Part shown: positions 416 through 60,239 of the stretch, piece by piece | How positions within the stretch are numbered: position 1 is the first letter of the stretch | How the letters are laid out: each line of letters starts with the position of its first letter | NCBI GenBank assembly: GCA_024277375.1 | Contig: JAJRVD010000027.1 | Coordinates: 19,063 to 83,062 of the forward strand | DNA from: Candidatus Omnitrophota bacterium | GTDB taxonomy: Bacteria; Omnitrophota; Gorgyraeia; Tantalellales; Tantalellaceae | Direction of reading: 5' to 3' | DNA length: 64,000 nucleotides | Program-made: the position numbers and the translations under genes | Notes under the pieces: model-generated | Databases searched by the model: none | Told to the model about the DNA's origin: nothing | The model's input: only the letters and a program-made list of their open reading frames with translations

Positions 416-493
416 TGATCATTATTTGAATTAGGTTGCTTGTATTCTAAGCTTTTGTTATAATAACAAAACAATTGTTAGGAGTAAGTAAGT

Positions 494-3400
494 ATGGATA
501 TGAAAGAACCCAGATCTAAAATAATAATCAAAGTTATATCTCTTTCGGTGAGTATTCTCATGCTCTGGCAGGGCCTAGTGTGGGCGAATCCTGAAATCTT
601 CTCAAAAAGTAAAACTACTTTGCAACCGCTTACTTTGCGTGCTCGTGGTGATTATAGTATTTGGTTCGTAAAATCCCTCTTGGTTTCCCTCGAGAAAACC
701 GAAAAAAATATCACTAATCAAAATTTCTCTCAGGTAGCCAATATTGTCAAATCTGAAATACGTGCGATGCTTGCGATAAAAACCGGCGAGGCGGAAACGC
801 ATGATTTCCATTCTAAGCTTTTTGCGCTATTTAGCGATATTGAGACACAGGAAAAGCATAGGTTTTACCGTAAGTTTTTTCTCATTGATATGGGAGTGTT
901 TTGCATAAGATATTATTTTTCGGAAGATGTCCGAGATCCAGGAGATCAATATCAGGTTATTTCTGATGAAAAAATAGGTCGGTATCTTTATAAACAGCTT
1001 TTGCTGAAAAGAGAATTTTCTGACGATGGTATTATCAAGAAAGAAGCTGCATACAGGCTTTATGAAGCGCTTGTAACCCATCCAAAAGAAGAACCGGTTC
1101 CTAAAAAAGAACAAGATACCATATTCTTTGATGGGGAAATGGTAAAAGCAATGGATACTGATCGATATTTAATCGAAGATGCGACTGTCTCTGATGCAGA
1201 AGTAATATCTGAAATGTATAGAAATAGTATAAATCTTGAAGATATGAGTCCTTCACGTTTGATTAAGATAATCAGCCAGGGGAAGATTGGTGAAAACCAG
1301 AATACTTATTTAAAAGTGTGTCGTGATCGTCAAAGCGGGAAAGTTGCCGGTTATATTTTTGCCATTGATGGGGAAAATGGACAGGGAAATGTCTACATAA
1401 AGCATTTAGTGATTTCAACATGGTACAGACGGCAGTACGTCGCCCAGACACTTCTTATGGATATGTGTAGGACGATGCAAACGAAAAGCTATGAGAGTTG
1501 TACTATACTCCCGATTTATCCCGCTGTTACGGATATAACTAAGTTCTTGGGGTTTAAATGGGATCGCAATATAGCGATGTTCAGGAAAACTTTTGAGGAA
1601 AATTCTTGGGATGGATGTATTGCCAGGGGAGATTCGGATGAGTTGTTTAAGCGGTTCGAGGATATGTTTAAGGTCAAAGGAACCATTAAACCTTTGAGGG
1701 ATTCCTTCCGGGATGGATTGTCAGAGGCAATTGATGAGATCAAGGCTAGACTTGAAAAAATGGAAGAGAGTATTCCCAGGAGGGACAATCAGTGGAGAGG
1801 GTCTATAAAAATAGCTAATGATGAGATCGAGAAGATCTTGAAAAACATAAGATCAGATCGGGTTGTAGAATTCAGGGGAATAGTGTTACCGTCCGACTAC
1901 TTAAATATAAAGCCGAAAGAATGGCTCCTAGGATTTAATACAATTGGACTTGATCTTGATGAAAAATACGAGCAAAAAGGAATGAGGGCTTTAAGGCAGA
2001 GGATAAACAAGTTAGTGCCTGGGGCGATCGGTCTTTCATCGCAGGTACTTGATATTATGGAGTCGCGTCCGGCTGGTAGTGTTGTTCAGGAGTTTCTTTT
2101 TCACGAAATTATTTGCCCAAGAATTGGACACCGATTGTCGAGAGTGTTCCAGGAGGAATTGTTTCCTGAAAACTACCAAAGGTTATGGACATCAGGAAAA
2201 GGCGGATACAAAGACGGAATCTTGGGGCATATGTTGAAAGAGGTTATAATCGATGAAAACAAGAAAACTAAAAAGAGAGATAGAGACAGAAAACAAAAGA
2301 GAGTAAAACGAGCTAAAAAAAAGTTATCCAAAGTTGAAGCAGGCGAAAAAAAACCAGTGCGGGAGAAGCCGGGGAACGGCATAGTATTGCGCAAAAAAAC
2401 GTCTCCGGCGAGGATAAAGTGGATAAAGAATAAGTTCTTTCCAAACGCAAAGGATGATCAATATGCCATCGGAGGGGCTCCTCTGTTTGAAGAAGCCATA
2501 TTTTATTATAGTTTCGCCGTTTCAGGGATCCACATGGCGAATCTCACAAATGTGTATTTCGCGGCGTTTTTGGTGGCTCTTAGAATTTTGTTTTATTTTT
2601 TGCATACGGATAAAGATAATAAAAAAACGGAACGCACTTGGTTTGAAAAATGTGGTATTCCATTTATCATGACGATAATAGGTGTGCTGGTTGTATTGGT
2701 GCCTTTTATTTATCCTGTTACCGCCGGTGCGGAAGCAACTTTTATTAAAAGTGCTACGGGAATGCTGATTTTTACGCATAGCCTTCTAAATTGTTTTGCT
2801 GTTAACGCGGGTTGGTCTCCGGCGAATGTATTGAATTTTTTTGGGCCGAAGATACCTGCGACTTCGAAAGATGTTTTAAGGTTTATGGAAAGGATTTTCG
2901 GAAAGTTTAAATTGAAAGGGAAGAATTTTTTAGAAATAGGATTTGTTGATAGAGAAGACTATGTTTCTGACCTGAGAGACGCGGGTGTTAATGTTACCAG
3001 GATAGAATCTGCGTCTTTGAGTGCGCACCTTTTTAAATTTAAAAAATATTCTTTTCAGACTGTATTTATGCATCAGATGCCGGGGGAGATGGCCGATGAG
3101 GTTAAAGTTGTGAAAACCTTTCGTGGTGTAGCGCGTATTATGGATATCCAGGGCCGTTTAGTGATTTTTGATGAAGAAATAAAAAAACACACAAGAAAAT
3201 CTATTGAGAAAGTCTTGTCTCAAGCCGGATTGCGGATAGAGTCTATGAGTAAATATCCGGGAGTATTAGTTGTTTGTAAGGATACTATGTTGGAATATCG
3301 AATGTGGAAGCTTTTGGAAAAGTGGTTGGATCTTCTGGAGAACGATGGATATGATATTGAAGAGGTATCCGATACCCTGCTTGAGCGCGAATATGGCCAT

Positions 3401-4876
3401 GCAATTACACATTATCTCCTGGGTAAAGTCCTCAATATCGTTCGAGATAAGGGTATGACACCATTTGCTGAAAAAATAATAGAATTTATACTTGTTGTTA
3501 ATAAATCCGTAAATGTTTCAGGGATGAGATTGTTTTTTAAATTTCTCAATTCCGCTAAGCCCGCCAAGGTCGAAATCGCTTCTTTCATCATAAAAGGAAT
3601 GGGGATGAAGGCTGTAAGCCACTTAGTGTCCGAAGGTTCAGGGAAGAAGAGTGAATATAAAAGAGATCTCTATTTGGGTTTGTTGGCTCATGTCGTCGCG
3701 GAGAATTTAAATGTAACGCGGTTGGCTGCATATTACAAAAAAGTTAAGCACCCTCGTAAAAAGAAGTTTTTTGTCGAGGCGATGGTAGCTGCCGGAGAGA
3801 AGCTTGTGAAAAAGATAAAGCACAAGAGAAAGGTCGCAAGTGAAATAATCATAACGACAGAAAGTTATAATGAAAAAATATATATGGAAGAATTCATGGG
3901 ATATTCAGGGGAACTATTGAATGATATCGCTGCGGAAAGAGATAGAGCCGCAAAGGTGCTAAAGCCGGGTGTGATACTAAAGCTTCAAAAATGGTTTGCG
4001 CCGCACATGTCACCGGAAAAGTACGCGGTTAAGAGGGCTCCGTGGATTGAGGAGGGTATATTCTTTATGTTGCCGGCCCTAGCCGCGGAAGGTATAAATT
4101 ATTGGGTCCGATGGGGAGGTTGGGGAACACTTGTTCTTATATCCCTTTCGAGGATATTATTATTTTTTCTGCACGAAGGTGCACGCGGTAACGCTCCACC
4201 GAAAGAGTATATTGTTCCATTGATCGTTGCTGCTTTAGGTTTTGTGTATGCAATGCTTGTCCCACAGGTTGCTCTCTCCGGTGTTTTAAACATGTTTTTT
4301 ATCCTGACCCTTTTTTTTGCGATCGGATATACGCACTATAGTCTCAATAAATTCGCCCTCCATACAGGTATCCCCCCGGCGAGTATTGCTAAAAGTAACA
4401 GTAGACACAAAACTTCCTATCTTGTGTTATGTTTAGAGGATGTTGTCAAGGGGAGCAAAGGCAAAGAGAGGCAAGTATTAAGTATTAACGGGGCAGTGTC
4501 AGAAGAAGATATATATTCATTGCTTCAGAAAGGAATTTTTGTGACAAATGTGAAATTAAGCCAAATAGATGACCCTGATTCGGAGCTATTGAGAAATGGT
4601 TATTTTGATGTTACGGTTATAAAGGATTTTGGTGAGGCAAACAATAGGAGGGGCGAAGTATGGAAATATATTTTCCAAAGTCTCAAGCCTTCGGGGTTGG
4701 TAGTTGTTACAGATAAGCAGATCTTTGATGAAAGCGTTGCTGATGAGACATTAGATCTATCAGCTCTTGTTGCTAAGTTGTATAATTCGTCGTCAAAAGT
4801 TTGGCTTATCAAGAAGAAGCGAAGTTTTTCAAGCAGAGAAATACGGAATATTGATGAGGAGTTGTATCGCTTGTAG
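494..4876 (+). CDS. Giant (1460 aa) secreted/polytopic membrane multi-domain protein of unknown function
   Basis: A 4.4-kb uninterrupted ORF with an AGGAG-like RBS before the ATG and an N-terminal signal/TM segment. A GNAT acetyltransferase-like core is visible (GYIFAIDGENGQGNVYIKHLVISTWYRRQYVAQTLLMD, about nt 1180-1560). A K/R-rich linker follows (KKTKKRDRDRKQKRVKRAKKKLSK, about nt 2264-2444). There are several TM helices. Two degenerate SAM-methyltransferase-like segments occur (FLEIGFVDRED...GRLVIFDEE near nt 2900-3280, and GYFDVTVIKDFGE...LKPSGLVVV near nt 4480-4760). Confidence 0.75.
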   Translation: MDMKEPRSKIIIKVISLSVSILMLWQGLVWANPEIFSKSKTTLQPLTLRARGDYSIWFVKSLLVSLEKTEKNITNQNFSQVANIVKSEIRAMLAIKTGEAETHDFHSKLFALFSDIETQEKHRFYRKFFLIDMGVFCIRYYFSEDVRDPGDQYQVISDEKIGRYLYKQLLLKREFSDDGIIKKEAAYRLYEALVTHPKEEPVPKKEQDTIFFDGEMVKAMDTDRYLIEDATVSDAEVISEMYRNSINLEDMSPSRLIKIISQGKIGENQNTYLKVCRDRQSGKVAGYIFAIDGENGQGNVYIKHLVISTWYRRQYVAQTLLMDMCRTMQTKSYESCTILPIYPAVTDITKFLGFKWDRNIAMFRKTFEENSWDGCIARGDSDELFKRFEDMFKVKGTIKPLRDSFRDGLSEAIDEIKARLEKMEESIPRRDNQWRGSIKIANDEIEKILKNIRSDRVVEFRGIVLPSDYLNIKPKEWLLGFNTIGLDLDEKYEQKGMRALRQRINKLVPGAIGLSSQVLDIMESRPAGSVVQEFLFHEIICPRIGHRLSRVFQEELFPENYQRLWTSGKGGYKDGILGHMLKEVIIDENKKTKKRDRDRKQKRVKRAKKKLSKVEAGEKKPVREKPGNGIVLRKKTSPARIKWIKNKFFPNAKDDQYAIGGAPLFEEAIFYYSFAVSGIHMANLTNVYFAAFLVALRILFYFLHTDKDNKKTERTWFEKCGIPFIMTIIGVLVVLVPFIYPVTAGAEATFIKSATGMLIFTHSLLNCFAVNAGWSPANVLNFFGPKIPATSKDVLRFMERIFGKFKLKGKNFLEIGFVDREDYVSDLRDAGVNVTRIESASLSAHLFKFKKYSFQTVFMHQMPGEMADEVKVVKTFRGVARIMDIQGRLVIFDEEIKKHTRKSIEKVLSQAGLRIESMSKYPGVLVVCKDTMLEYRMWKLLEKWLDLLENDGYDIEEVSDTLLEREYGHAITHYLLGKVLNIVRDKGMTPFAEKIIEFILVVNKSVNVSGMRLFFKFLNSAKPAKVEIASFIIKGMGMKAVSHLVSEGSGKKSEYKRDLYLGLLAHVVAENLNVTRLAAYYKKVKHPRKKKFFVEAMVAAGEKLVKKIKHKRKVASEIIITTESYNEKIYMEEFMGYSGELLNDIAAERDRAAKVLKPGVILKLQKWFAPHMSPEKYAVKRAPWIEEGIFFMLPALAAEGINYWVRWGGWGTLVLISLSRILLFFLHEGARGNAPPKEYIVPLIVAALGFVYAMLVPQVALSGVLNMFFILTLFFAIGYTHYSLNKFALHTGIPPASIAKSNSRHKTSYLVLCLEDVVKGSKGKERQVLSINGAVSEEDIYSLLQKGIFVTNVKLSQIDDPDSELLRNGYFDVTVIKDFGEANNRRGEVWKYIFQSLKPSGLVVVTDKQIFDESVADETLDLSALVAKLYNSSSKVWLIKKKRSFSSREIRNIDEELYRL

Positions 4877-4921
4877 AACGGATTAATAAATAAAGAACAA
4901 GCGTGCGACCGTTTTAAAGAT

Positions 4922-5728
4922 ATGGACAATAATTCTGCTGTAACATTTCATTTGATCAAAAGAGTAAAAAAAATATATGCCAAAAAAAATCATGTCATGG
5001 CGGGAATGATTGGAGATATTATTTATGAGCTAAATCATCGATCCGCTTCGGATGGAATATCGTTAATACCATACTTGTTCGATACTGGAGACCCTGTGGC
5101 AACGTTTGTGGGTAGGAAAATTTTGAGAAAAATAGGGAAAAACAGTTTTCATGCACTTATAAACTACGGAGTTAGTGATGGTAGTGGCACTGGAGGCGAG
5201 GTGTGCGGTGAGATTCTTACGGAGCTGATAAGGGAAAATATGGGGATAGGATACGTAGTTGCTATTTACAAGAAGTATTCCGAAAGCGACAAAAGTAGCG
5301 ATTTGGTCAAAAGAATGTTCATTGTCAAAGCGGTATCAGATTCGGGGCAGCAAGGACAGATGCAAGTAAGAAATTTCAAAAAACGAATGAAGGACAAAAT
5401 AAAAAAAGCGCCTTCGAAGATCGGAAAAAGTTCATTGAGAGCGGAACGAGAAGTTGTCAGTATGTTGCTAAGGGATGTAGAGAACTATAGTGCGAGCCAT
5501 AGTTCTCAAAACCGCTTAAGAGACAAGGATTTATCCAAAGAACCCGATGAAAAGATCGCGAAAACGAAAGCGGATAGCATGATGAGTATGTTGATCTCTT
5601 CTGTGAAGCTTAATCGGGGAGTTAAGGTATTGGTGTTTGATCTTGGCGCCGGCAATGGCGAGATGAAAAATACAGTAATGAGTATTGTAGAAACGGATAT
5701 AGCGCGGGTAAAAGAAAATGATATATAG
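4922..5728 (+). CDS. Hypothetical protein (268 aa), co-oriented with and tightly following the giant ORF
   Basis: The ORF follows the upstream giant ORF after a 45-nt gap. No recognisable motif. Its stop (TAG) directly abuts the next ATG. Confidence 0.45.
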   Translation: MDNNSAVTFHLIKRVKKIYAKKNHVMAGMIGDIIYELNHRSASDGISLIPYLFDTGDPVATFVGRKILRKIGKNSFHALINYGVSDGSGTGGEVCGEILTELIRENMGIGYVVAIYKKYSESDKSSDLVKRMFIVKAVSDSGQQGQMQVRNFKKRMKDKIKKAPSKIGKSSLRAEREVVSMLLRDVENYSASHSSQNRLRDKDLSKEPDEKIAKTKADSMMSMLISSVKLNRGVKVLVFDLGAGNGEMKNTVMSIVETDIARVKENDI

Positions 5729-6607
5729 ATGGGGGAAGCTTTAGGAAATATGGATATAATTGTAGGCGTTGGTAAAAGTCTTGCGAAGAAGGCAATGAAG
5801 ATCTCAACTTTAAATGGAGGGAATATAAGTCCTGAAGCTATGGAGATCATTGCCGGCGAACAAAACAGAAGACATTACATTCATTTTATAAACAAAGCTG
5901 CGGTAACTTTTGTAGATAAGGATGAACTTCTCCGAGACGCTAAGGGCAAATACGAATTTGACGAGAAAAGAGCAAAAAGATTAGCAGACAATGTTGTGGG
6001 GGCATTAATTGTCGCTGCTGAAAATAAGGAAAAGCCATTGGAAGCGTTGATATTTGATCTGGAGCTTGGCAAAGGAAAGATGAGAAAGATCATAAGGGGG
6101 ATGGTTGAAGATGGCATAGTGAAGATAAAAAAGAACAATAAGGAGTTAGGTATATTTTTAGAAGGCGTCGAAATATTTTTTGGAGAGGGGGAAGTTTTTG
6201 CCAAAAGGATGGTAAACATTACGACCTTGGGCAAAGGCGTAAGAGATCCTGAGGGTCTTATAGTTATTTCTAATGACAAAAACAAAGAATATTATGCGGA
6301 GCTTATCAACAAAGCGACAATGACATTTGTTAACGATAGCGATCTTGCCGAGGATGATTTTGTGTGCCTGCCGGCTATTTTACTGTGTACTTTGGGTAAA
6401 TATCTAAATTGGCCGGTTGAAGATCTGATTAAGCATTACAAGAATATTCCAAATGCCAAAAAATATAGCGATGATTTTTATAAGAAATTATTTTCACCTA
6501 AGAATAAGACGTTATTGATTAAGCTTATACCAGGCGCGGCAAAAATAGATTTTAACAAGTCTGATGATCTAGTAGATGCTTGGGTAAGGATATTAAAGAG
6601 CGCGTAG
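5729..6607 (+). CDS. Hypothetical protein (292 aa) with an internal duplicated motif
   Basis: The ATG immediately follows the TAG of the upstream ORF, which suggests an operon. An internal repeat is present: HYIHFINKAAVTFVDKDEL (about nt 5873-5930) and EYYAELINKATMTFVNDSDL (about nt 6290-6350). No known domain is recognised. Confidence 0.45.
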   Translation: MGEALGNMDIIVGVGKSLAKKAMKISTLNGGNISPEAMEIIAGEQNRRHYIHFINKAAVTFVDKDELLRDAKGKYEFDEKRAKRLADNVVGALIVAAENKEKPLEALIFDLELGKGKMRKIIRGMVEDGIVKIKKNNKELGIFLEGVEIFFGEGEVFAKRMVNITTLGKGVRDPEGLIVISNDKNKEYYAELINKATMTFVNDSDLAEDDFVCLPAILLCTLGKYLNWPVEDLIKHYKNIPNAKKYSDDFYKKLFSPKNKTLLIKLIPGAAKIDFNKSDDLVDAWVRILKSA

Positions 6608-12410: not shown

Positions 12411-14861
12411 GTGAGAAAAACTGAAAAAGAAAAGATTATAGAAGACCTTAAAAGTGATTTTTTGCGTAATCGCAAATACTCGCTTGCCAAAGATGTTTAT
12501 ACCTCCACTGATTACGATAATTTTAAGTCATTGGCTATGACGATACGTGATCGCCTGATCGAGAGATGGATACTGACCCAACAGAGGTATCATGACGAGA
12601 ACAGTAAAAGAGTATATTATCTTTCCCTGGAGTTTCTTCCCGGTCGATTTTTATCTAACAATATGATCAATTTGGATATTCTCGAAGAATGCAAGAGCGC
12701 CGTTAGTGAAATTGGATTAAATCTGGAAGACTTATGCGAACAGGAAGTAGACCCCGGGCTTGGCAATGGCGGGCTTGGCAGGCTAGCGGCTTGTTTTCTC
12801 GACTCGATGGCTACGCTTGGTATCCCAGCGACAGGTTACGGGATCCGGTATGATTATGGAATATTTAAACAAAAAATTGAAAAAGGATTTCAGGTAGAAG
12901 TTCCGGAAGAATGGCTTCGCCTGGGCAACCCATGGGAATTTGAAATGCCGGAGGTGACGCTTAAGATCCGTCTTTACGGTAAAACCATTAAACGTACGGA
13001 CAAAAATGGTAAGTTATGTGTGGATTGGGTGGATACCAGTGACATATTGGCAATGCCTTATGATACCCCGATCGCCGGATACAGGAACGGTGTGGTCAAT
13101 AACCTGAGACTTTGGTCAGCGAGAAGTACTGAAGAATTCGATCTTGATTATTTTCATGATGGAGACTATATAAAAGCATGTGAAGACAAGATAGTTACTG
13201 AAAATATCTCGCGAGTACTCTATCCGAGCGATAATGTGTACAAGGGCCTTGAATTGCGTCTTAAACAGGAATATTTTTTCACCTCCGCGTCAATACAGGA
13301 TATTATTCGTCGTTTCAAGATGCACAATAACGACTTTAGCGCTTTCCCTGAAAAAACAGCGATCCATCTCAATGACACGCATCCGGCTGTAGCGATAATA
13401 GAGTTGATGCGTATTCTTTTGGACGAAGAAGAATTAGATTGGGATATGGCCTGGGGTATTACGACCGGAACATTCGCTTACACCAACCACACGATCCTCC
13501 CCGAGGCCTTAGAGGCCTGGCCGGTATCGCTCTTTGGTAAACTATTGCCCAGGCATCTTGAGTTGATCTATGAAATAAATATGAGGTTTCTTAAGGACGT
13601 AGCCAAACATTTTCCGCACGATCAGGATAGGCTTAAACGTATGTCGTTAATAGAAGAAGGACCAAATAAAAAGTTGAGAATGAGTCACCTATGTATCGTA
13701 GGAAGTCATTCGGTGAATGGAGTTTCAAAGCTTCATACGGAATTATTGAAGACGACTCTTTTTAAAGATTTTTACGAGTTTTGTCCGGAGAAGTTCAATT
13801 CGAAGACGAACGGTATTACACAAAGACGGTGGCTTAAAAAAGCAAATTCTTCTTTAGCTCAGTTAATAACCACCAAGATCGGTGATGAGTGGACCGGAGA
13901 TCTTACACAATTAAAAAAATTAATTCCATTGTCATCCGATCGGCTTTTTAAGAAAAAATGGAGTCAGATCAAAAGGGATAACAAAATAAAGTTTGCCGAG
14001 TACGTAAAGAACGGAACGGGTGTTATTATCGATCCTGATTCTATTTTTGATGTGCAGGTAAAAAGAGTGCATGAATACAAAAGACAAGTTCTTTTCGCGT
14101 TCTATCTGATAGCGCGCTATCTCAGGATAAAACATAATCCAAAAAAAAACGTAGTTCCAAGAACGGCTATTTTTGCCGGGAAGGCCGCCCCGGGATACGC
14201 GAGAGCGAAGCTGATAATAAAATTCATCAATAATATCGCGGATGTTATTAATAAAGATCCGGAGATAAATGATAAGTTGAAAGTTGTTTTTCTGGAAAAC
14301 TATTCTGTGTCCATGGCAGAGAGGATATTTCCGGCAAGTGATCTGTCGGAACAGATATCAACCGCCGGGAAAGAAGCCTCGGGTACCGGAAATATGAAGT
14401 TCATGCTTAATGGCGCGCTTACTATAGGGACATGGGACGGCGCGAATATAGAGATCGCCGAGGAAGTTGGCCTCGATAATATTTTTATTTTTGGACTAAA
14501 AGCGGATAAGATCGCTCAGATCAAGGCAACAGGGTATAATCCGCATGAGTACGTCAAGAAAAACCCGCTTCTGAATGAGTCTCTTTCTCTTATTAAGGAA
14601 GACTTTTTCTCGCAGTTTGAACCCGGGATATTTAAACCTTTGTGCGATTCACTTATCTGGCATGACGAATACATGATCTTTGCCGACTTTGAGGATTATG
14701 TCGCGACACAAGATAAAGTTTCAAAGGCATATCGTGATCAGGAAAAATGGACAGAAAGATCTATAATGAACACCGCTAATTCCGGAAGGTTCTCCAGTGA
14801 CAGGACAGTTGCTGAGTATGCCGAAGACATCTGGGGAGTGGATCATAACGGAAAAAAATGA
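12411..14861 (+). CDS. glgP: Glycogen/alpha-glucan phosphorylase
   Basis: The pyridoxal-phosphate site EASGTGNMKFMLNGALTIGTWDGANIE is present. At 816 aa the length fits. The overall GT35 pattern is present (LGNGGLGRLAACFLDS). GTG start. Confidence 0.9.
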   Translation: MRKTEKEKIIEDLKSDFLRNRKYSLAKDVYTSTDYDNFKSLAMTIRDRLIERWILTQQRYHDENSKRVYYLSLEFLPGRFLSNNMINLDILEECKSAVSEIGLNLEDLCEQEVDPGLGNGGLGRLAACFLDSMATLGIPATGYGIRYDYGIFKQKIEKGFQVEVPEEWLRLGNPWEFEMPEVTLKIRLYGKTIKRTDKNGKLCVDWVDTSDILAMPYDTPIAGYRNGVVNNLRLWSARSTEEFDLDYFHDGDYIKACEDKIVTENISRVLYPSDNVYKGLELRLKQEYFFTSASIQDIIRRFKMHNNDFSAFPEKTAIHLNDTHPAVAIIELMRILLDEEELDWDMAWGITTGTFAYTNHTILPEALEAWPVSLFGKLLPRHLELIYEINMRFLKDVAKHFPHDQDRLKRMSLIEEGPNKKLRMSHLCIVGSHSVNGVSKLHTELLKTTLFKDFYEFCPEKFNSKTNGITQRRWLKKANSSLAQLITTKIGDEWTGDLTQLKKLIPLSSDRLFKKKWSQIKRDNKIKFAEYVKNGTGVIIDPDSIFDVQVKRVHEYKRQVLFAFYLIARYLRIKHNPKKNVVPRTAIFAGKAAPGYARAKLIIKFINNIADVINKDPEINDKLKVVFLENYSVSMAERIFPASDLSEQISTAGKEASGTGNMKFMLNGALTIGTWDGANIEIAEEVGLDNIFIFGLKADKIAQIKATGYNPHEYVKKNPLLNESLSLIKEDFFSQFEPGIFKPLCDSLIWHDEYMIFADFEDYVATQDKVSKAYRDQEKWTERSIMNTANSGRFSSDRTVAEYAEDIWGVDHNGKK

Positions 14862-16879
14862 AGAAATATTTGTTGCACGACGATAATGGTAAACTAGAGA
14901 CCCATATAGATTTCAAAGGGAGTCTTAACGATCAGCAGTATGAAGTTGTAACCGCCGCGGAAGGCCCATGTCTTGTTCTCGCCGGCGCGGGAAGCGGTAA
15001 GACCCGAACTCTCATATATCGCCTGGCATATCTTTTGGAACGTGGAATCCCCCCGGGTAATATTTTGCTTATGACCTTTACTAATAAGGCAGCGAGAGAG
15101 ATGCGCGAGCGCACTGAAATGCTTTTAAAGTACAGGCCCAAAGGGTTATGGAGCGGGACATTCCATCATGTGGGGAATAGATCTTTACGCGCGTACGCTC
15201 CCGAAGTTGGTTACGAACGAGACTTTGGTATACTTGACCAGCATGATTCCCGTGAGATTATTAAGTCATGTGTAAAAAAAATGCGTATTAGTCCGGGAAA
15301 AGAAAAGTTTCCTAAGCCGTCGGTGATACAGGCAGTAATAAGTCTCGCGACAAATACCCAAAGAATCACTAAAGAAGTCTTGGAGGATAGATTCCCGTAT
15401 CTATTGAAATTCGCGCCACAGATAAGCGCGATAAAAGATCTCTATGAAAAAAAGAAAGTTTCATCGGGGAACATGGATTATGACGATCTTCTTTCAAAAT
15501 GGAAATGGCTTCTGGAGAACGTAACTGAGGTAAGAAAAAGATATTCTGAGCAGTTTCGGTACATAATGGTAGATGAATATCAGGATACGAACTTTCTTCA
15601 AGCGGACATAATAAATATCCTTAGCGGTCACCACTGTAATTTATTGGCGGTAGGAGATGACGCCCAATCTATTTATTCATTTCGCGGTGCCCGAGTAGAG
15701 AATATACTACAGTTCCCAAAAAAGTTTAAGAGCGCCAAGGTCTTTAAACTGGAGATCAACTATCGTTCAACTCCCGAAATACTGGACTTGGCGAATGATT
15801 CTCTTTTAAATAATGAGAACCAGTTTGAAAAACAGCTTAAAGCGGTAAACCCGTCTATAGATAAGCCCGCGCTGGTCGAAGTAAGAGATCCTTATGCTCA
15901 GGCGAAATTCATCGCGCAGAGGGTAAAAGAAATGCGTGAAGAGGGTATTGAGATGAAAGATATCGCTGTTCTTTTCAGGGCGCATTATCAGTCAGCCGAG
16001 CTTGAAATGGAGCTTGTTAAGAGAGGAATGCCATATATTGTCCGAGGAGGAATACGCTTTTTTGAACAGGCTCATATCAAGGATGTATTGGCTTATTTGA
16101 AAATAGTCATTAATCCTATTGATGAAGTAGCCTGGATCCGGGCTCTTGTTCTGTGTCCTGGTATCGGACCGGGATATGCGGAGAAGATATATTCCGCTTT
16201 TTGCGGATCGGGCACTGATATTGCAAGATTTCTGAAAAGTGGTTTCGTGAATAATTTGCCCAAAAAAGCGCAGGATGGATACGGGCGATTTCAGAAGATA
16301 ATGCGCGCTATAATTTCTGAAGATGTCAACGGTGATACCGGGAGCATGATAGCAGCCGTATTGGACGCGGGGTATGAAACGCATCTTCAGGTAGCTTTCG
16401 AGAACGCGAAAGACCGCGTAGACGATATACATGAACTGATAAATTTTTCTCATGAATATGAGACATGCGCGGATTTTTTAAGTGATATAACGCTCAGGGA
16501 AGGATTTAGGGGAGAGATTGTTCAGGACGGGCAAGACGAAGAATAACAGCTTGTGCTTTCAACCATACATCAGGCAAAAGGTTTAGAGTGGAAGGCTGTT
16601 TTTGTGATAGGTCTTTGTGAAGGGCAGTTCCCGCATCCCAAGGCTTATGCGGAATCGGCGGAGATGGAAGAAGAGAGGCGTCTTTTTTATGTAGCGGCAA
16701 CCAGAGCGGAAGAATTTTTATACCTTATTCATCCCCGTACGCGTTATGACTATCAGCAGGGGACGGTAATAGCTCGCCAGAGCAGATTTCTTGAAGAATT
16801 GGATCCGGATGATTATGAGGTGTGGGAAGTGGGGTCGAATTCGTTCCCAAGCAACGAAGAAAGGACCATTGAGCTGTAA
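14858..16879 (+). CDS. uvrD: UvrD/PcrA-type ATP-dependent DNA helicase, interrupted by one in-frame TAA (16544-16546); possible pseudogene or readthrough
   Basis: Walker A LAGAGSGKTRTLIYRLAYLL and motif II MVDEYQDTN are present. The C-terminal piece (16553-16879) carries motif VI, LSTIHQAKGLEWKAVFVIGL...RRLFYVAATRAEEFLYL. Both parts are in the same frame and are separated only by TAA, CAG, CTT. The track splits the gene into 562-aa and 108-aa ORFs. Confidence 0.8.
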
Positions 16880-18451: not shown

Positions 18452-18597
18452 TGGGGGCGCGGCATGCAGACTGTGTCGTAATTTGTTTCGCGGATGACCG
18501 CATACAACATATTGTAGGGGTTCGATTTATCGAACCCGATATAACGGGCTTGATGAATCAAGCCCCTACATTATGACACAGTCTGATGCCGTGCCCC
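18452..18597 (+). repeat. Family D structured repeat, copy 1. It is about 115 nt, with an outer stem cagactgtg/cacagtctg and two internal hairpins. It could be an ncRNA or a MITE.
   Basis: The core tgtgtcgtaat...gtaggggttcgatttatcgaacccgatataacgggcttgatgaatcaagcccctacattatgacacag is conserved in 4 copies. The outer stem pairs with a G-U wobble (tgtgtcgtaat / attatgacaca). The internal hairpins are ggttcgat..atcgaacc and gggcttga..tcaagccc. Confidence 0.7.
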
Positions 18598-18693
18598 TAC
18601 GGATGATTTTTTTTGCTCGGTTATTTCAAACATTTTAAAAGCATATGAGGTGCAGGCGATGAAACTGTCATTGAGAAGAGGAGCTAAGAGCAA

Positions 18694-18733
18694 GGGGGAC
18701 AGCCTCTTTTTGGCCAAAAAGAGGCTGTCCCCC
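18694..18733. repeat. Palindromic repeat family A copy (gggggacagcctctttttggccaaaaagaggctgtccccc)
   Basis: A perfect hairpin. It lies inside the first 35 codons of the six-frame ORF 18650, so the real start of the giant gene is probably downstream at 18755. Confidence 0.65.
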
Positions 18734-18754
18734 TTGCTACGTTGTTCGCTCGTG

Positions 18755-21700
18755 ATGACGGGGAAGGGTATTGCCTCGCTGGTCACTTTGATAGCTTTTG
18801 TATTAAATATTTTAGGCGCGGAAGTTATTAGTATAAAAGCATATGCCGCTATTTCCCCTGAAATAGCTTCTACCAATCCCGCTGAGTATAATTTTCTGAA
18901 TGTCGATTCTTTTACATTACCCAAATACCTTGGAACCATAAAAGATTTGTGGAAGTCTGCCTCCGGACGAGACACGGTTATTCATATCCAGGACGCTCAT
19001 TGTAACTATGCCGCGCAGGATACGATAGCTAAGATGATAGAACGTATCGATTCGGAGTACGATATAGACGTGATAAATCTTGAAGGCGGCGCGGAGGATT
19101 ATGACCTGTCTTTGTTTACCGATATTGAGGATAAGGGCGTAAGACAAAAAGTAGTCGACTATTTTATGAAGCTTGGCATGGTCTCCGGTGCCGAAAGCTT
19201 TGTTCTTAATAATCAGGATAAAGCAAAGTTATGGGGCGTCGAAGACGTGGATCTTTATTTTGACAACCTTAGCGCCTACCGGAATTCGCTGGAGTACAAG
19301 GAAGAAGTTGACGGGTATCTTAAAATGCTCAGCCGTTTGCTGAATGAACTTAAAATAAACGTTTATTCGAACGAACTTTTGGAGTTTGATCTTAAATATT
19401 CCGCTTACAAGGCGGGTAATCTGGCTTTCAGAGATTATGTGATCTATATTCGTGATAAGGCCGCGAAATGTGCTATCGACATGGAGGAGTTTGAGAATAT
19501 TGCGTTATTGTCTGAGTCTCTTGAACTTGAGGGCAAAATTGATTTCAAAAAGGCCAATCGCGAGAGGGATATGCTCATAGAAGAGCTCCGGCGCATGGTC
19601 TCGAAAAACGAGCTTGAAAACCTGGTGCTCAAGACCTTACAGTTCAAGAAAAAGATAATTTCCCGGAAAGACTATTATACGTATCTTTTTGAAAAAGCGC
19701 GGCTTGTGAACATCGGCTTGGATGGGTTCGGCGAACTCAGGAAATACACTGACTATATCTCAAAGTATCAGACCGTTGATAGATCAAAGATATTAGAAGA
19801 AATGTCTATTATTGAGGATGCGATCAAGGATGTTCTATGCGTAAAAGATAAAGATCGTACGCTTGTCAGGTTGTCCAAGAATTTCGCGCTCCTAAAGAAC
19901 ATATTCAACGTCTCGCTCACAAAAGACGACTATGTGTATTACAAAACCAACGAACCCGCGTTCGCGGTGAAAAACTATATTTCATTCATTAAGGCTAACG
20001 ACTCATCATTGCGTGGAGCTGTGCCTTTCTCGCCGTTGCGAGGAGCCGACCTATCCTCTGTCATTGCGAGCCCGCCGAAGGCGGGAGAAGCAATCTCTGA
20101 AAACATCTATAATCTCGACCGCCACCGCGAACAAATATCCCGTTTTTACGAAGATGGCATCAAGCGTGACGATGCATTCTTGCGCAACCTCAGGTTTCAA
20201 CGTAAGCAGGGAGTAGGAAGCAGGGAGCAGGGTGTCGTAGGAGAGGCCTCTAGCCGTGAACAAAAAACGACAATTTTAGTTACCGGCGGATTTCACACCA
20301 AAAATTTATGCGAGCTGTTTAAAGAGAAAGGTATCTCCTACGTTTCTATCATGCCTAACTTCCGGAATGAGAATGGTTATGAAAGCCCGTATTTTAACCT
20401 TCTCGCTGGTAAGAAAAATGATGTAGCCGCGGCGCTTACAAGTGATATATCTTCGTTGGCGTTATATTCTGATTTATTGCAGAACGGTCTAAACAATGGA
20501 GATTTTACCTCGAATGTTAAAGCGGTTAGAAGGTTGTGGGTAAGTCTGGTTGCCGCTCAGATCAGGAAAAACGGGAGAAATGTCATATTCGGAGATATTA
20601 ATGGTCGTTATAGACGCTATTCATTCAACTCCGAAGATGGTGATCCTGTAGCGGGACTTACAATAAACGGAAAACAGGTATACGCAAGGAATTTTGGTGG
20701 GGAAAGATCCCTTCAGGCTGAAGCGAAGGCATTATATGAGGAAATTTCCAGAGATATTGTATCCTTTGCCGCGGAAAGAGAGGAGATAAAGTCCGCGGTT
20801 GTCAGGTTAAGAGAGATCTTTAGTACTTTTCCCGACGTTGTTATCTCTGAAGTGAGAAATTTCTGGGAAAATGAAAAAGAAAGCACCGGAAATGTTTTCA
20901 GAGCTGTCGAGTTCTTTGATCTGATGCCCGAGATAATGCTTAATGCGAAAGTAGAGCGGTTGAAAGAAGCGGCGTTGAGTTTTGTCGACCGTCAACTGGA
21001 ACATATTTTTGACAGAGAAAACGCGGTGGCCATATATAACGAGATAATATCTACCGACGAAGGTATTCCTCAAGACCTGCTCAAATACGCTTTGTACTAC
21101 AGGAATCTAAAGGAGGGTAAAACTCTTACGGATGAGCAGTTGGCCCTGCATGGCCTCAGCAGCAAAGAGGACTTCCCATATTCCCTCGAGGTCGATCGTG
21201 TCTTAAAACACAAGGATGATAGTAATCCTAAAAAACTTTTGCTTATTTATAATGCTGAACATACCAGTATGGTAGGGATGGGAGACCAGATATCAAATGT
21301 GGTTCCCCTGGTTCAGGCACTTAAGGATAAATATCCCAAGTTGGACATAACCATATATACGGATAAACCCTTTGTGTATGAGGCTCATGACAATGTCCGT
21401 GTATTTAGCATGTCTTCTCCCGGAATAAATGCCGAAGAGGTTTTTGATATGGCGATCGATTATTCGGACAGTAAGAGTCGAGAGGAATATCCGGATAAAT
21501 ATTTAGTTCAAGAAGCGCAGATCTCTATTGTAGGGGATTTCAATAATTTAACAGTTAAGGCTAAGGGGTTACCGCCTTTGGGCATAAAAGTTCGTAATCG
21601 AAGTAATGCATATTCATTAAGCTTACGGTTATGTGCCGAATTGAGACTTCCTGTCAGGATAGGAACAGAACAACCTCAGACAAGTTCGATAGTTCTTGGC

Positions 21701-24700
21701 CCGGGTAGTGAGGAAGCCGATATGTGGTGGGAGGAAAATGTAGTATTGAAAAACACAGAAAAGAGAAAAGTCGTATTTTTGAATCCGTATGGAGGGGAAT
21801 GGAAGGAAAAGGGATACATTTATAACGATAGGCTAGTCAAGGATATAGAAGCCCTTCTTGAAGACGGAAACTATATTGTTATATCTCCAAATGACACTCG
21901 TTGGGGTACTCGTGAAAAAATCGAAGAAATGCTGAAACTATTAGATGCAGCAAAACAAAAATACATTACTATTTCAAAGGGTCCGTCAGAGGCTGGAAAT
22001 TTAATAAAACATTGGTTATATAGGGCTGATCATATTGTCACGGTTGAGGGTGGTACCGCGCATTTGGCCTACAATTTGGGTAAAACATTTACGCTTGTCT
22101 GGAAAAGAGGCGCGGGATTACTACATGATATCCCGCCTATGTGCGATCTTGGTCAGGAGTTAATCCCGATAGGAGGTAAACCGCAGGATATAGTGGATGC
22201 TGTTAAAAGAGCTTTTGAGAGTGACGATGAAGGCTCAAAAGTTACTAGTATCGGAACCGGAATTTTGCGAAAAACAAAAACAGTACTATCCGGTCTTTTG
22301 GTCTTTCTTGCCGGATCTTCAGCTTTGCAAATACTTTTGGCGGGCGATCTCTTCGCGGCGACGCCGGATGCGATTATGCAGGCTACTGCGACGCCGTGGG
22401 GCTGGATTGCAGTAGTGGTGGTTGCGGGTTTTATTGTGTATAGGTATTTTGCGATGTCTGCAGAAAGAATGGGTACAAAAGTTATTCCATTGGGAATAGC
22501 AGGTTTGATCTTTATGGGGGTTCAATGTAGCTATGCAGCCGCGTTGTCTCCACGTGAGGGTAAAACAAAAATATTAGTTTCATCTGCTGAGTTTCAGGAA
22601 AAACAGCAGCAGATCCGAGAAATGATAAAAGGGCTTGCGGATAGCGAAGAACATCTTTCAGGGAAAGAAAGGGAGTTGCTTGAAGGAATATTAAGTCTTA
22701 TCGAGGATGGAGATATCAAGATTAAATATGATCCTGAAAGGAATTATGCGTATGCCGATAAAGAGAATAAAGAAGTCGGGTTGCCTGAGAGTAGCTTCAT
22801 GGACAGGTATCGATTGGCGAGTGCCATAATTCATGAATTATTACATCAGCTATGCGCGAAACGTAATATCGATTTTTCAGATAAGATTAAAACGAGTGGG
22901 TTTAATGATTCAAATGATTATTGGCAATGGCTTGATCCCGGGGAGGAAGGATGGGTGCTCCGAAATACCATGATGATCATGAATCAAATCCCGATGGAAG
23001 CATTAGGCCTGAAACTGCTACTTGCGGAAGTCCCAAATCAAGAATCTTTCAATACTCAGATATTGACATATGATAACGAACCCATTACGAATGTTGACAG
23101 AATTATAGAATTGGCAAAAGATCCGGAAATGGTTATGGAAAAAAGAAGATTTCTGGTGAAGTTGTTACCTCTCATAAGCCTTAATATCGCGGAAAAAGTC
23201 GGAAACACCGGGATCATAAGGCCAGTTGACGCGGAAACCTCAAAAGAGGCAGAAGAGGCTTTGCTGGCTTTGAAAAAGTATTATGAGAGCGAACAAAATA
23301 TATTAGCAACGAAACATAAAATCCTGAAAAACAATAAGAAGAGACCCAAGCTGGTTAATGGGGCGGTCCGTCTGTCCTGGAAAGATCCCTCCAAGCTAAC
23401 ATCAGAAGATAAAGATCTCGTTGAATGGTGGTCAAATGTTAAATTGCTGGAAACGATAGAGCTATCAAGAAGGATGCTTAACGAGAGCAAGGTAAGTGTA
23501 GATAAAAAGTTAGATGAGTTTACTGTCCTAATAGTGGATGGGATCAAGCGTGAAATGAAGGTATCTGATTTGAGAATAGGGATGGCACGTATGTTGTATG
23601 GGAGTGAAGAAAAACTCGTAAAAGATGTCTTGAGGGAGTTGAAGCCTTGGGAAATCGACCTGATCGTGTATTACCAAAAAGAGATAAGGATCAAGCTAAA
23701 ACAGACTATTTCATATTATGAGGGAAGAGAGTTTGAGTTTAATAAGAACAACTTAACGGGAGCAATTAGCACGATAATGATGTCGCTTTTGCGGGATGTC
23801 TCAAAAACCGAGTATAACAGCATTTATGATCATAATAATCGTGGCCTTAAATGGGATGACCCGGGACGGTGGCATGGGCTCACGTTTGATGATAGATGGT
23901 ATGAGATCGGCAACCTGAATGGTTTATCATATAATTACTATAACGAACATCGTAAAAATGAAACAGAGGAAGAAAAGTACAAAGCTGATAATCCAAACAG
24001 GCCGAAAAATTTCGTTAACAATAACGCGACAAAAGGGTTTCGCGTGGATATGAGGGAGACATATTTATTCATGCGCTTCTATCCTGAAGAACTAGCTAAG
24101 ATCGTTAAGAAGGACAGAGGTGTAGCCGCAAAAGTAGAATTATTGGAAGAATATATGGGCAAATTGAAGCGGAATGTTAATAAAACAGCAAAATGGAGAG
24201 GAGACAGACAAAAAAAGAAAGAGAGTGAAAAGACATCAGACGGTATCAATACACTTAAAGGAATAATGGCTTTCGCGATAGCCCTGCCGCTTGTGCAGAT
24301 GCTTTTGGCGGGCGATCTCTTCGCGGCGACACCGGGGGTGCTTGTGCCCTCGATATTTAACTCGTTTAATGTTATAGGGTTCTTGTTAACGGTGGTGTGC
24401 TTAGGTTTAGCCGGGCTTATTCTTTATTATGATACCAATGATGCGGACGAATGGGATGATATCCCAGAGAGTGAGTCGATAAGGGCCTGGCAGGTTCTCT
24501 TAGGAGGGCGTGAGTGGGAAAAGATGGGGAAAGAATTCACTGACCGCTTAGCGATCTTGACCCCACAGGAGAGTGAGAACCGAACACTTCTTTTTGAGTT
24601 TTTGGAGAGATTCGGAAGAAAAGATTTACTCGCCCATATCAAGAGAAAACCGGATGAATTTTTGCCTGTTCTTGAGCATTTGAGGGGTAGTGAATTCATT

Positions 24701-27700
24701 TCAGGATACTTTGGAGAATTACTATATAGGGTAGACCGGTCGGGGGAGAAAGAACAGGAATTGCTGGATCTTGACTTGAAGACAGAACCATTGAAGGTAT
24801 GGGAATTGATAGATATTCTCATTGAAGTTGATTCATTTCAGCAAGATCTATACGAGTTCCTGACAAAAGATACCGCATATTCGGCAATACCCGGACAACA
24901 GTATTTGCCGCTTAATGTGAATGTCGTAAATGTTGTAGGGCAGATGGTTGAAGAAACGAGAAGTGCAAATCGGGTGAATATAAGGGGCAATCTTATCGCG
25001 ATAAGCGGGCAATTCCCCGGATATTATGCCGCTATTTGCGATTCTATTCTGAGGAATCCTGCCAGGATTCTAGAATTTGACATTGCCCCGGAAGTTGTAG
25101 AAAGAAATCTAAAATTTCTTCAACCTGAAAATTCCAAAGATCATATAACCTCTTTTGAGGGGTTTGTGGCGTTTCTGAAGAGGGAAAGTAAAGTTACCGA
25201 TAATATGGGGAAATCACCCATTGGTAAAGGTGTTCTGGATATATCGAAACGTGTTTTTAAATTCTTCGGCAAGGAAATAACTCCGGTTGTTGAAAATACA
25301 TGGATCCCGGTATTTGAAGAACTTGTGATGTTTTTGGTTTTGGCGGGCGGATATTTGGGCGGGTTATTCGTTCTTTCCGCACTGCCGTATATCCTCACCA
25401 GAATTATATTTACCGCATGGCACCTGAAAAACGAAAGTGGCACCTGGTTGCAGAAAATGCTTGTGCCGGGCATCGCGTCTGTGTTTGCGCTTATACCGGT
25501 GATGGCGGTTTTGGTATTGCCGGCGGTGTCCGCAGAGTTAATGTTAGCGGCGGCATTGGCTTTGGGAACCGGAACACATGTGCTAGGAAACCGGAGAGTA
25601 CACAAAAAGCGGATGGATGCATTTAAGCGTATCTTCGAAGAGAAAAAAGAAACTCTCGTTAAACAGGTAAGTGATGAAGAATTATTGGATGAATTTATCG
25701 GATATCTAGATGTGAATGTCAAAGAACTATTCGGGATCGGATTGCTTCTTGAGATAAGAGAGTTCTCTAAGTCTATACCTTTATCCAGAGATGAACAAAC
25801 TCGTCGCGGAAGACAAAGGGCGATTCTTTTAATGGCCGGGTTGAATGTCAGCGAAACGGAGTTGTACAAAGAAAATCAAAGAAAGATCGAGGAAGAACGC
25901 GTAATAGCGGAAGATCTAAATGGTATGGAAAATATTCATGATCTGATAGAGGGAAAGTTTGTTACGGTAAAACAGCTGAAAAGGGCCATAGAACTGTCCG
26001 CTGGGAACATAACCTCAGCGCTTGAAACATTAAATAAACTGAAAGACGTTATTAAAAAACACGGTATCGATGAGCTGTTTGAATTAGCCGATTTGGAGCG
26101 CGTATCCAATAATGTTCCGTGGAATTGTTTTGAATGGGTTGATTATGATTCCGCGCGAGATTTATTGGATCAATACGGCATCAAGCCATTTCTCAAAATG
26201 AGACGTTTGGGAGTAGGAGAATATTCATATCGTTCCATAGATTCTTATTCTCTGACGCTTCGGGGCATATTTAATTTGGTTAGGGACATGAGAGATGGGG
26301 ATATCAGTGAGAGATATGGGATAAGTGTTACCGGTTCTAATGTCGAGAAAATAACCATCAACATCATCAAAGAAAAGATATCGCTAAAAGGGCCGTCCAG
26401 TTTGCCTGTTAACATGTTCCCGGAAGATGAGATCGAATTTTTAGAAAAAAGTCATGAGGATACATACCGGCGTGAGAGCGAAAAAAACATGGATCGTTAT
26501 CTGAACAGGGAAAAACATAAAAAAGCGATATTGTCGTATATGCTGCTTTGCGAACGTTACGGCCCGGATAACATTAGGCGTCTTGTGCGGGATAACGTGC
26601 TGGAGAAGTGGAGCGAAAAAGTAGAGTCAATTAAAGACCAGTTGAGAGATCTAAAATCCGTGATCGACTTGCCGAGTGTCGGGATAGAACCGTTTGTTGA
26701 GTTTTCCGGAGGGAATGAAGACGGGCTTTGGCCGCTGACATTTATTGAAAAAGAAAAATGGGCACAATTTCTTACGTCGATACTAATTCAAAGAGGAGAT
26801 GTCACCGCGAAAAATAAAAGGCTCAGCGATCTTTATATCAACAATATGCTCGCTTCGGTAGGGAACAATATTGTTCCGAATGTGTCTATGATCAATGTTA
26901 TCGCGGAACTCCTTACACATAACGCGCAAAGCGGGGTACATCCCGTAGAGAGTTTTTTGCTTTCCGCGCTTGGTGAAGCGGGATTAAACAAGGGTTCAAT
27001 AGAAAAAATCTTAGAATATCTGGCGAAGAACAAAAAAAGTGAGATAAAAAGGTCGCAAATTATACGGGCCTTAGCCGGTATATATTGGGGATTTAAGTAT
27101 GAACGCTTTTCGGCGGGAACAATAGATACGCGAATGATAAACGCTATTATCGAGACGGAAGACACTCGCCGATTAAGCGCGGCGCTGAATTTTATCCCCG
27201 CGTTAATTGATCTTCTCGAGTCGGGAATACTTGCCAAAGAAGAGATCGAAACCGGGACAAGATCGGGAAATATAGTTGACAAAATCGGAGGGTTATTGAA
27301 AAGTAAGATTGAAGAAACATTTAGTATAAAGATCAGTGATACCGATTTGGAGGTACAGGCGGCTCTTTCCGACACGTATTTTCTGGCGGATTTATTCAGT
27401 TTTCGAAGAAAGTATAAGGAAGAAGACGAAAACGCCTATAAGATATTCCTGGGATTGGTCAAAGCGTATTTTGAGAACGGCAGTAAAGGTGTGAGAGAAT
27501 ATAAAAACTCAAATGAGCTTGTCAATGTACAAATCCCTGAAAGGATAAAGGAGAAAGGATTTGAACAACTTTCGCGCCTCAGGACGTTCGCGCGGTCGGG
27601 GGAAGGTGAAGAGATGAGTGTATTTGACCGACTATTTAAAACAACATTAAGAAATTATGATGAGCATTCTAAGGAAATGAAATTTGATCCCGGTTCGATC

Positions 27701-33220: not shown

Positions 33221-33331
33221 TTGTGTCGTAATTCGTTTTGCGGACGCTCGCATGCAATATATCGTAGGGGTTTGATCCATAGAACCCGATATAACGGGCT
33301 TGATGAACCAAGCCCCTACATTATGACACAG
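33221..33331 (+). repeat. Family D structured repeat, copy 2
   Basis: ttgtgtcgtaattcgttttgcgg...gtaggggtttgatccatagaacccgatataacgggcttgatgaaccaagcccctacattatgacacag. It is 55 nt upstream of purH. Confidence 0.7.
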
Positions 33332-42593: not shown

Positions 42594-43394
42594 ATGGAAA
42601 ATAGAGAAGTAGTGATAGAAGTAAAAGATCTGGTGCGTAAGTTCGGAGACAGGACCGTTCTTAACGGAGTTAATCTCAAGGTGCATAGAGGTGAGATATT
42701 CGTTATTATGGGTGGTTCCGGATGCGGGAAAAGCACGCTTTTACGCCATATTATAGGTAATTTAAAACCCACATCGGGAAGGGTCGAATTGCTGGGTACG
42801 GATATTACGGACTTTTATGGGACAGAACTGGATGGTGTGCGCAAAAAGATAGGCATGTCATTCCAGTCTTCAGCGCTTTTTGACTCAATGACGGTTGCCG
42901 AGAATGTGAGTCTTCCCCTGAGAGAGCATACAAAACTCGAACAAAGCGTTATAGATATAATGGTGAAGATGAAGCTGGAGCTTGTGGGGCTCAGAGGGTT
43001 TGAAGACCTGTTGCCCAGTGAGATATCCGGTGGGATGAAAAAACGTGTGGGTCTTGCGCGCGCGATCGCCATGGACCCTGAAATTATTTTTTATGATGAA
43101 CCGACGGCCGGGTTGGATCCCATCGTCGCGGCAGTTGTAGATAAGCTTATTATCGACCTTGCCCGTAAACTTGCTATTACAAGTGTTGTTGTTACGCACG
43201 ATATGAAAAGCGTTATGACTATCGCGGATAGTGTAGCGATGCTTTACGAGGGGAAAGTGCTGGAAACCGGGACGGTAGAGGAGATAAAAAATTCAAAGAA
43301 TGAGATGGTTCAACAGTTCATTAATGGTGATCCGGACGGCCCTATACGATTTTTTCAACAGAAAGACGATTATTTAGAGCATTTAACGCAATAA
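42594..43394 (+). CDS. mlaF: Phospholipid ABC transporter ATP-binding protein MlaF
   Basis: Walker A GGSGCGKSTLL, signature LSGGMKKRVGLARA and Walker B IIFYDEPTAGLD are present. Confidence 0.85.
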   Translation: MENREVVIEVKDLVRKFGDRTVLNGVNLKVHRGEIFVIMGGSGCGKSTLLRHIIGNLKPTSGRVELLGTDITDFYGTELDGVRKKIGMSFQSSALFDSMTVAENVSLPLREHTKLEQSVIDIMVKMKLELVGLRGFEDLLPSEISGGMKKRVGLARAIAMDPEIIFYDEPTAGLDPIVAAVVDKLIIDLARKLAITSVVVTHDMKSVMTIADSVAMLYEGKVLETGTVEEIKNSKNEMVQQFINGDPDGPIRFFQQKDDYLEHLTQ

Positions 43395-43409
43395 AAGAAG
43401 GAGATAAAA

Positions 43410-44003: not shown

Positions 44004-44012
44004 TATATAAAC

Positions 44013-44977: not shown

Positions 44978-45030
44978 ATAAAAAACAGCGTTTCGCACAA
45001 GTCTAGTCAATGAATACAAAGGAGGGTGAT

Positions 45031-60065: not shown

Positions 60066-60080
60066 CGGATCCCCGTCTTT

Positions 60081-60200: not shown

Positions 60201-60239
60201 TTCGCGATGGATGACAGACAAGACAATGGAGGTAATATA

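Follow-up and report, generated by a model that had tools for sequence, protein, structure and literature searches.

Three adjacent open reading frames of a Candidatus Omnitrophota genome read as one giant membrane-protein gene interrupted by two amber codons

We analysed a stretch of 64,000 nt (hereafter the window) from a metagenome-assembled genome (MAG) of a Candidatus Omnitrophota bacterium (GCA_024277375.1, contig JAJRVD010000027.1, positions 19,063-83,062, forward strand), in which three consecutive plus-strand open reading frames (ORFs) occupy positions 494-6607. We are highly confident that this region is one ancestral gene and not an operon. With somewhat better than even confidence, we read it as a recently nonsense-mutated (pseudogenised or polymorphic) giant gene belonging to a family of Omnitrophota proteins. 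A first-pass annotation, made from the sequence alone, had described a three-gene cluster led by a membrane protein combining acetyltransferase and methyltransferase features. The coordinates it gave, the lengths of 1460, 268 and 292 amino acids (aa) and the gaps of 45 and 0 nt obtained by ORF calling proved correct; the interpretation as a cluster did not, the three ORFs being collinear pieces of a single gene. Their start positions (494, 4922, 5729) all equal 2 modulo 3, which puts them in a common frame; only two internal stops occur in it, both TAG, at codons 1461 and 1745, without any frameshift (Table 1).

Self-comparison of the read-through product, whose residue numbers are used here, revealed collinear homology that runs over each of the two stops. 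In ORF1 a unit composed of membrane module, α/β segment and helical segment is duplicated: copy 1 covers residues 634-1153, while copy 2 starts at residue 1154 and continues through the first TAG and the spacer into ORF2. Across the first TAG, residues 924-1113 match residues 1436-1660 (E 3e-7), and a repeat of ~135 aa spans the second, with residues 1675-1815 matching 1813-1954 (E 1e-25). The latter had been noticed as an internal duplication of one of the small ORFs; this duplication exists, with a first copy that starts in ORF2 and extends past the stop. The second TAG falls within a partial copy of the C-terminal domain described below, between helix 2 and strand 2, and the initial Met of ORF3 is aligned with a conserved Leu. 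The two codons stand in the contexts TTG-TAG-AAC and ATA-TAG-ATG. The Glu found opposite each of them would be compatible with single GAG-to-TAG changes, although at 22-35% identity this is only suggestive.

Relatives carry both ends of the gene on one chain. Among 5.8 billion proteins the full read-through product is a near-orphan, with P0002 (3545 aa) as sole non-self match: the N-terminus of P0002 matches that of ORF1 (E 2e-12) and its C-terminus that of ORF3. An exhaustive HMMER search with ORF3 retrieved 77 cluster representatives, the longest protein having 4986 aa. All 77 match ORF3 residues ~80-290 with their extreme C-terminus, and 41 of them also carry the N-terminal domain (NTD) of ORF1 at the very start of the chain. 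ORF2 and ORF3, formerly described as devoid of recognisable motifs, both carry the recognisable and conserved C-terminal domain (CTD) of this family. In a genomic survey of nine loci from species-representative genomes, all seven relatives with both ends within the locus lack internal stops; three further relatives stay open as far as the locus edge, over at least 3488 codons in two cases and over 666 codons, on a short contig, in the third. The window copy, with its two TAGs, does not have NTD and CTD on a single polypeptide unless the TAGs are read through. Since homology crosses both TAGs and in relatives a single unbroken chain carries both NTD and CTD, we conclude that 494-6607 is one gene; ORF2 and ORF3 do co-occur with ORF1 in relatives, but solely as parts of the same protein. 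The three ORFs are deposited in databases as three separate proteins, each in a cluster with a single member from a single contig. Neither ORF2 nor ORF3 has a Shine-Dalgarno (SD) motif comparable to that of ORF1, SD usage being weak genome-wide, and neither terminator-like nor promoter-like signals were found at the ORF junctions.

Named members of the family belong to Candidatus Omnitrophota without exception, and as far as sampled the family is restricted to this phylum. The best non-self match of ORF3, P0004, is syntenic in a distant relative, where it converges on the same pabB-ispH-polyprenyl synthase block and has neighbours whose proteins show 59-70% identity. P0004 is a 334-aa C-terminal remnant, preceded by non-coding sequence with stops and by a transposase gene of insertion sequence (IS) type, an arrangement suggesting that an IS element cut the giant gene short in that relative. 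As the syntenic relative is a remnant with an IS transposase upstream, the locus may be prone to decay. In three ENA contigs (L010-L012: NODE_12877, NODE_49974 and NODE_73288) the sequence either breaks ~180 nt upstream of the 334-aa ORF or carries an HTH_Tnp_1 transposase with a palindromic end. Short CTD-only proteins found elsewhere are contig-edge truncations or remnants. Tandem or adjacent paralogues of the family were observed at L001/L002 (JBAROK010000027.1) and at L007 (QNCM01000002.1); at L007 the CTD of one member ends at 10477 and, without a change of frame, the NTD of the next begins at 10523.

Table 1. Features of the 494-6607 gene, in window coordinates (HMM, hidden Markov model; i-E, independent E-value; pLDDT, predicted local distance difference test)
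Feature	Position	Strand	Description
AGGAG Shine-Dalgarno-like motif	480-484	+	9 nt 5' of the ORF1 ATG
Read-through frame	494-6607	+	2037 sense-or-TAG codons and terminal TAG; very probably a single ancestral gene
ORF1	494-4876	+	1460 aa; N-terminal 72% of the gene; ends at TAG #1
NTD1	500-1102	+	hydrophobic signal/anchor (aa 10-28) and ~150-aa domain; HMM i-E 4.7e-45
GNAT-like domain	1172-1564	+	aa 227-357; inserted between NTD1 and NTD2
NTD2	1694-2263	+	aa ~401-590; invariant GWLLGFNT-type and LFHExxCPxxGH...QExLFPENY motifs; directly after NTD1 in relatives
Basic K/R linker	2264-2428	+	25 K/R vs 5 D/E in 55 aa
Membrane module copy 1	2393-2893	+	four long helices; family-invariant E, FxxxH, HxxxN
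α/β segment 1	2864-3313	+	first of the two formerly 'methyltransferase-like' segments; no GxGxG, no significant methyltransferase match
Helical segment 1	3314-3952	+	paralogue of the ORF2 body
Membrane module copy 2	3953-4453	+	homologous to copy 1
α/β segment 2	4424-4873	+	second degenerate α/β domain
TAG #1	4874-4876	+	aligns with Glu of the paralogous repeat, near the α/β-to-helical boundary
45-nt 'spacer'	4877-4921	+	15 in-frame sense codons; gapless alignment to the paralogous repeat
ORF2	4922-5728	+	268 aa; helical segment 2, linker, first third of the partial CTD copy
Partial extra CTD copy	5549-5935	+	HMM positions 9-136 of 223, i-E 9e-15; spans TAG #2; E 1e-25 vs copy 2
TAG #2	5726-5728	+	abuts the ORF3 ATG (TAGATG); aligns with Glu in copy 2, D/E/S in relatives
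ORF3	5729-6607	+	292 aa; remainder of the partial copy, full CTD, terminal TAG
Full CTD	5963-6604	+	~215 aa; five-stranded α/β/α fold; i-E 8e-60; pLDDT 91; ends at the conserved terminus of the family

The read-through product begins with NTD1, detected with an HMM built from 40 relatives; its N-terminal hydrophobic segment bears out the predicted signal peptide, as a signal or anchor segment. The GNAT-like region that follows scores below Pfam thresholds (16.7-20.1 bits vs 23.6 for PF13673 and 15.9-19.0 vs 20.7 for PF00583). The corresponding stretch of ORF1 nevertheless matches residues 670-800 of the relative P0022 (E 6e-6), which pass the Pfam GNAT threshold (36.2 bits vs 20.7), and the alignment covers the motif A/B core of the GNAT profiles. 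In GNAT enzymes the acetyl-CoA loop of motif A is Q/R-x-x-G-x-G/A; it reads RGRGLA in P0022 and RRQYVA in ORF1, where Tyr replaces the central Gly. The GNAT core claimed earlier is thus supported indirectly, via P0022, and judged from its residues it appears degenerate; its activity is doubtful because of the Tyr at the central Gly position. NTD2, present in 9-13 relatives, has nine invariant residues (E133, H137, C141, H146, R150, Q153, N160, Y161 and D174) which might form a metal-binding or catalytic site; no match to NTD2 was found in Pfam or PDB searches. The extremely basic linker was described correctly.

The polytopic membrane segment is likewise present, in fact as two homologous copies (aa 634-800 and 1154-1320), and the module is found in 9 relatives (11 copies). 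In an alignment of 13 copies, E33, H71 and H129 are invariant and F67 and N133 near-invariant. E, FxxxH and HxxxN on successive transmembrane (TM) helices form a pattern known from CPBP/Rce1-like proteases (PF02517), which the module shares; the PF02517 profile was matched by only 2 of the 13 copies, without significance (best E 0.023), the module had no NCBIfam match and a PDB profile search returned nothing. Structural similarity to Rce1 was not found either. The E/FxxxH/HxxxN pattern is conserved family-wide. For the two α/β segments, reported as degenerate and methyltransferase-like, no Pfam methyltransferase family was found at E <= 10, and NCBIfam gave methyltransferase matches at chance level only (E 0.094 and 0.037). 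Comparison by hhalign with the true methyltransferase domains of relatives yielded a probability of 5.9% (P 0.0064) over 63 columns around an 'LKPGG'-type strand. By direct reading, the glycine-rich motif I (GxGxG) that follows strand 1 in methyltransferases binding S-adenosylmethionine is absent, the site reading LEIGFVDRE and LSINGAVSE in the two segments. Their methyltransferase likeness is unproven, and both enzyme matches of the first-pass annotation, GNAT and methyltransferase, lie below significance. In ORF3, the CTD retains every residue conserved in the family, and its C-terminus (...ILKSA) aligns with ...MLARA, following the family end pattern ...L-x-x-A.

The fixed ends of these proteins flank variable cargo, which in relatives includes enolase, low-molecular-weight phosphatase, class I methyltransferases, GNAT, HATPase, PMT_2 glycosyltransferase, TPRs and ParE. 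By analogy, substrates of type IX secretion also have an N-terminal signal and a conserved extreme CTD on either side of variable functional domains. Their CTD is a small β-sandwich, whereas the present one is a ~200-aa α/β/α domain, and the 494-6607 family differs further by its internal membrane modules and cytoplasmic-type enzymes; no link to a secretion system was seen, and no search aimed at one was made. The gene also resembles the long Omnitrophota proteins described by West-Roberts et al. (2023, bioRxiv 10.1101/2023.11.21.568195; 2026, bioRxiv 10.64898/2026.06.07.730766): the phylum is the same, as are the signal peptide with TM helices and the cytoplasmic-type enzyme domains arranged along one polypeptide. 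The 2026 preprint reports that methyltransferase (PF08241), HATPase, GNAT (PF00583) and HAD domains co-occur in these proteins, a mix also seen across the 494-6607 gene and its relatives P0022, P0033 and P0036. With 2037 aa against 10,000 aa and more for the proteins emphasised there, the 494-6607 gene is a smaller, interrupted member of these known membrane-anchored multi-enzyme proteins. The 2023 and 2026 texts make no mention of the NTD1/NTD2 and CTD pair, the four-helix E/FxxxH/HxxxN module or the interruption by stops; the subfamily defined by these ends, the module and the interruption appear to be undescribed in the literature searched.

We then considered the genetic code. TAG terminates at least 7 other well-formed genes of the window, among them an SPS-like gene whose end agrees with homologue length (630 aa vs 634 aa in a relative). 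None of the 5 tRNAs in the 64-kb window has a CUA anticodon. The window gives no support for recoding of TAG (pyrrolysine or amber reassignment), TAG being an ordinary terminator there and tRNA(CUA) absent; stop-codon recoding in Omnitrophota was not reported in the literature searched. The window contains another interrupted gene, coding for a UvrD-like helicase (14858-16879, plus strand), with an in-frame TAA at 16544-16546 (gaa TAA cag). Pfam UvrD_C positions 2-154 are matched before this TAA and positions 288-346 after it, where 110 more in-frame codons keep helicase motifs V and VI intact. A family member in another Omnitrophota MAG (L013 1-130; GCA_018814505.1, JAHIZQ010000033.1) is interrupted by an in-frame TAA within a class I methyltransferase domain, immediately 5' of where P0048 is annotated to start. 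Because TAG is a normal stop and the UvrD-like gene is broken by TAA, ordinary nonsense mutation is favoured over TAG recoding. Elsewhere in the window three consecutive ORFs (266, 197 and 171 aa) at 42594-44528 on the plus strand lie in one frame, separated by TAA and TAG. Their shared frame looks coincidental: SD-like motifs are present for the second and the third, if not for all, and the last of them opens with an N-terminus resembling a signal peptide.

The intact gene would have encoded a 2037-residue membrane-embedded multi-domain protein with NTD1, NTD2, one or more membrane modules, variable enzyme-type cargo (in this gene the GNAT-like domain and two degenerate α/β domains) and the CTD at its C-terminus. 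Two point changes would then have placed amber codons at positions 1461 and 1745. Under the standard code, to which this genome otherwise keeps, translation should end at the first of these, giving a 1460-aa membrane protein without CTD, and ORF2 and ORF3 would persist as untranslated or poorly translated remnants. The intact protein was probably a membrane-anchored scaffold keeping enzyme domains at the cytoplasmic face of the membrane, in line with the reading of long Omnitrophota proteins as membrane-anchored multi-enzymes (10.64898/2026.06.07.730766), and its conserved termini presumably served in targeting or assembly. As the helix modules are even-numbered and a strongly basic linker precedes the first one, the soluble domains probably all face the same way, most likely towards the cytoplasm. 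Premature in-frame stops are reported to arise often and to persist only briefly in bacteria (Belinky et al. 2021, PMC7918605), and the present gene resembles those cases by its otherwise intact in-frame coding sequence, but differs by having two stops in one gene.

We hold at even odds or a little better that both TAGs are genuine and inactivate the gene, rather than being read through, marking a functional split or arising by error, and several observations weigh against this judgement. Apart from the two TAGs, 6.1 kb are in perfect frame; as the frame is flawless and the conserved CTD residues are retained, any inactivation must be very recent, unless selection still acts on the parts downstream. 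One codon accounts for both internal stops, and the TAGATG sequence at the second is compatible with termination-reinitiation. All disruptions seen, here, in the UvrD-like gene and at L013, are nonsense and never frameshifts, in a search that was biased to in-frame cases. Finally, no known relatives were found for NTD1, NTD2 or CTD. The identity of the stops, the flawless frame and the conserved CTD would also fit leaky or suppressed ambers, which a fraction of ribosomes would read through, by near-cognate decoding or with a suppressor tRNA encoded elsewhere, to produce nested isoforms of 1460, 1744 and 2037 residues. In-frame stops under purifying selection are also reported to be widespread in bacteria (PMC7918605), and a stop in a housekeeping-type UvrD with intact motifs V and VI would be more easily tolerated given appreciable read-through. 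We nonetheless consider leaky ambers unlikely: TAG ends many normal genes of the window at homologue-matching lengths, no tRNA-CUA lies within the 64 kb, relatives have no stops at the positions of the two TAGs, and the literature searched contains no report of recoding in this phylum. As the other interruptions (UvrD-like gene, L013) are TAA, no amber-specific mechanism covers all of them.

Functional fission of the gene, with fixed nonsense changes and three polypeptides made by termination-reinitiation that would reassemble or act apart, is improbable. The stop-start junction TAGATG, where the ATG substitutes a conserved Leu, is of the abutting or overlapping kind common in this genome, the first TAG lies near a domain boundary and the pieces are deposited as separate proteins. 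The second TAG, however, cuts within a domain, ORF2 lacks an SD motif and has its ATG 45 nt past the stop, the split is seen in no relative, and the CTD-only short proteins known elsewhere are truncations or remnants. We regard as equally improbable a sequencing, assembly or consensus artefact, by which the gene would be intact and the stops errors or minority alleles fixed in the MAG consensus. The sequence comes from a MAG and has been seen once, three in-frame stops per 64 kb is a high density, and the quality of public assemblies is variable, as illustrated by an adapter-led contig (ENA ERZ27251120 k141_1965267; L014), positions 1-17 of which are Illumina adapter (CGACGCTCTTCCGATCT), its first bases being an artefact. 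The rest of the window looks clean, with an ORF of 3657 codons and ~40 other intact genes free of evident frameshifts, so that crude sequencing error does not suggest itself as the cause; substitutions creating stops at three places without indels would moreover not be a typical error profile. A bolder view, which we hold to be quite unlikely, makes the stops leaky gates in a lineage that tolerates or exploits read-through to make nested isoforms with and without the CTD, the UvrD helicase being likewise rescued, and, independently of that, places the gene in an undescribed Omnitrophota-wide family with fixed ends, swappable cargo and four-helix modules whose E/H/H-N constellation could be a new intramembrane hydrolase. 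Hardly credible is a genuine operon of independently evolved genes, in which a GNAT/methyltransferase membrane enzyme would be accompanied by two accessory proteins: standard ORF calling does yield three close same-strand ORFs, but the homology is collinear over both stops, NTD and CTD share one chain in the 41 relatives, and the 45 nt taken for an intergenic gap code in frame. The most likely explanation is an ordinary gene that broke recently.

Two other large genes are present in the window. The giant gene at 18650-29623 (plus strand, 3657 aa) matches nothing in Pfam at E <= 0.01, and the family HMMs do not detect it as one of the NTD/CTD proteins (E 0.03-0.05); by eye, its C-terminal ~150 aa look loosely similar. 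A third large ORF (~60200-64000, plus strand) has a signal-peptide-like start near 60.2 kb and more than 1250 open codons, and runs off the window end; the region ~60.2-64 kb seems empty in ORF lists that skip end-truncated ORFs. An intergenic repeat of ~75 nt, which looks like an element of repetitive extragenic palindromic (REP) or miniature inverted-repeat transposable element (MITE) type, occurs at 18512-18586, 33264-33321, 44904-44978 and 60080-60154, in both orientations, with 91-95% identity and two hairpin-forming halves. Two of the copies lie just 5' of these two large genes, and none lies 5' of ORF1.

For annotation, these results mean that three separately deposited 'hypothetical proteins' should be treated as one interrupted gene, and that orphan ORFs beside giant genes in Omnitrophota MAGs merit a check for in-frame stops. 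They also delineate a family of Omnitrophota membrane proteins, comprising at least 77 clusters and marked by conserved termini, the membrane module and swappable enzyme domains, which offers a handle on how the long multi-enzyme proteins of this phylum are built and evolve. Read-through of the stops, if it proved real, would be a sign that termination is relaxed in an uncultured, host-dependent lineage.

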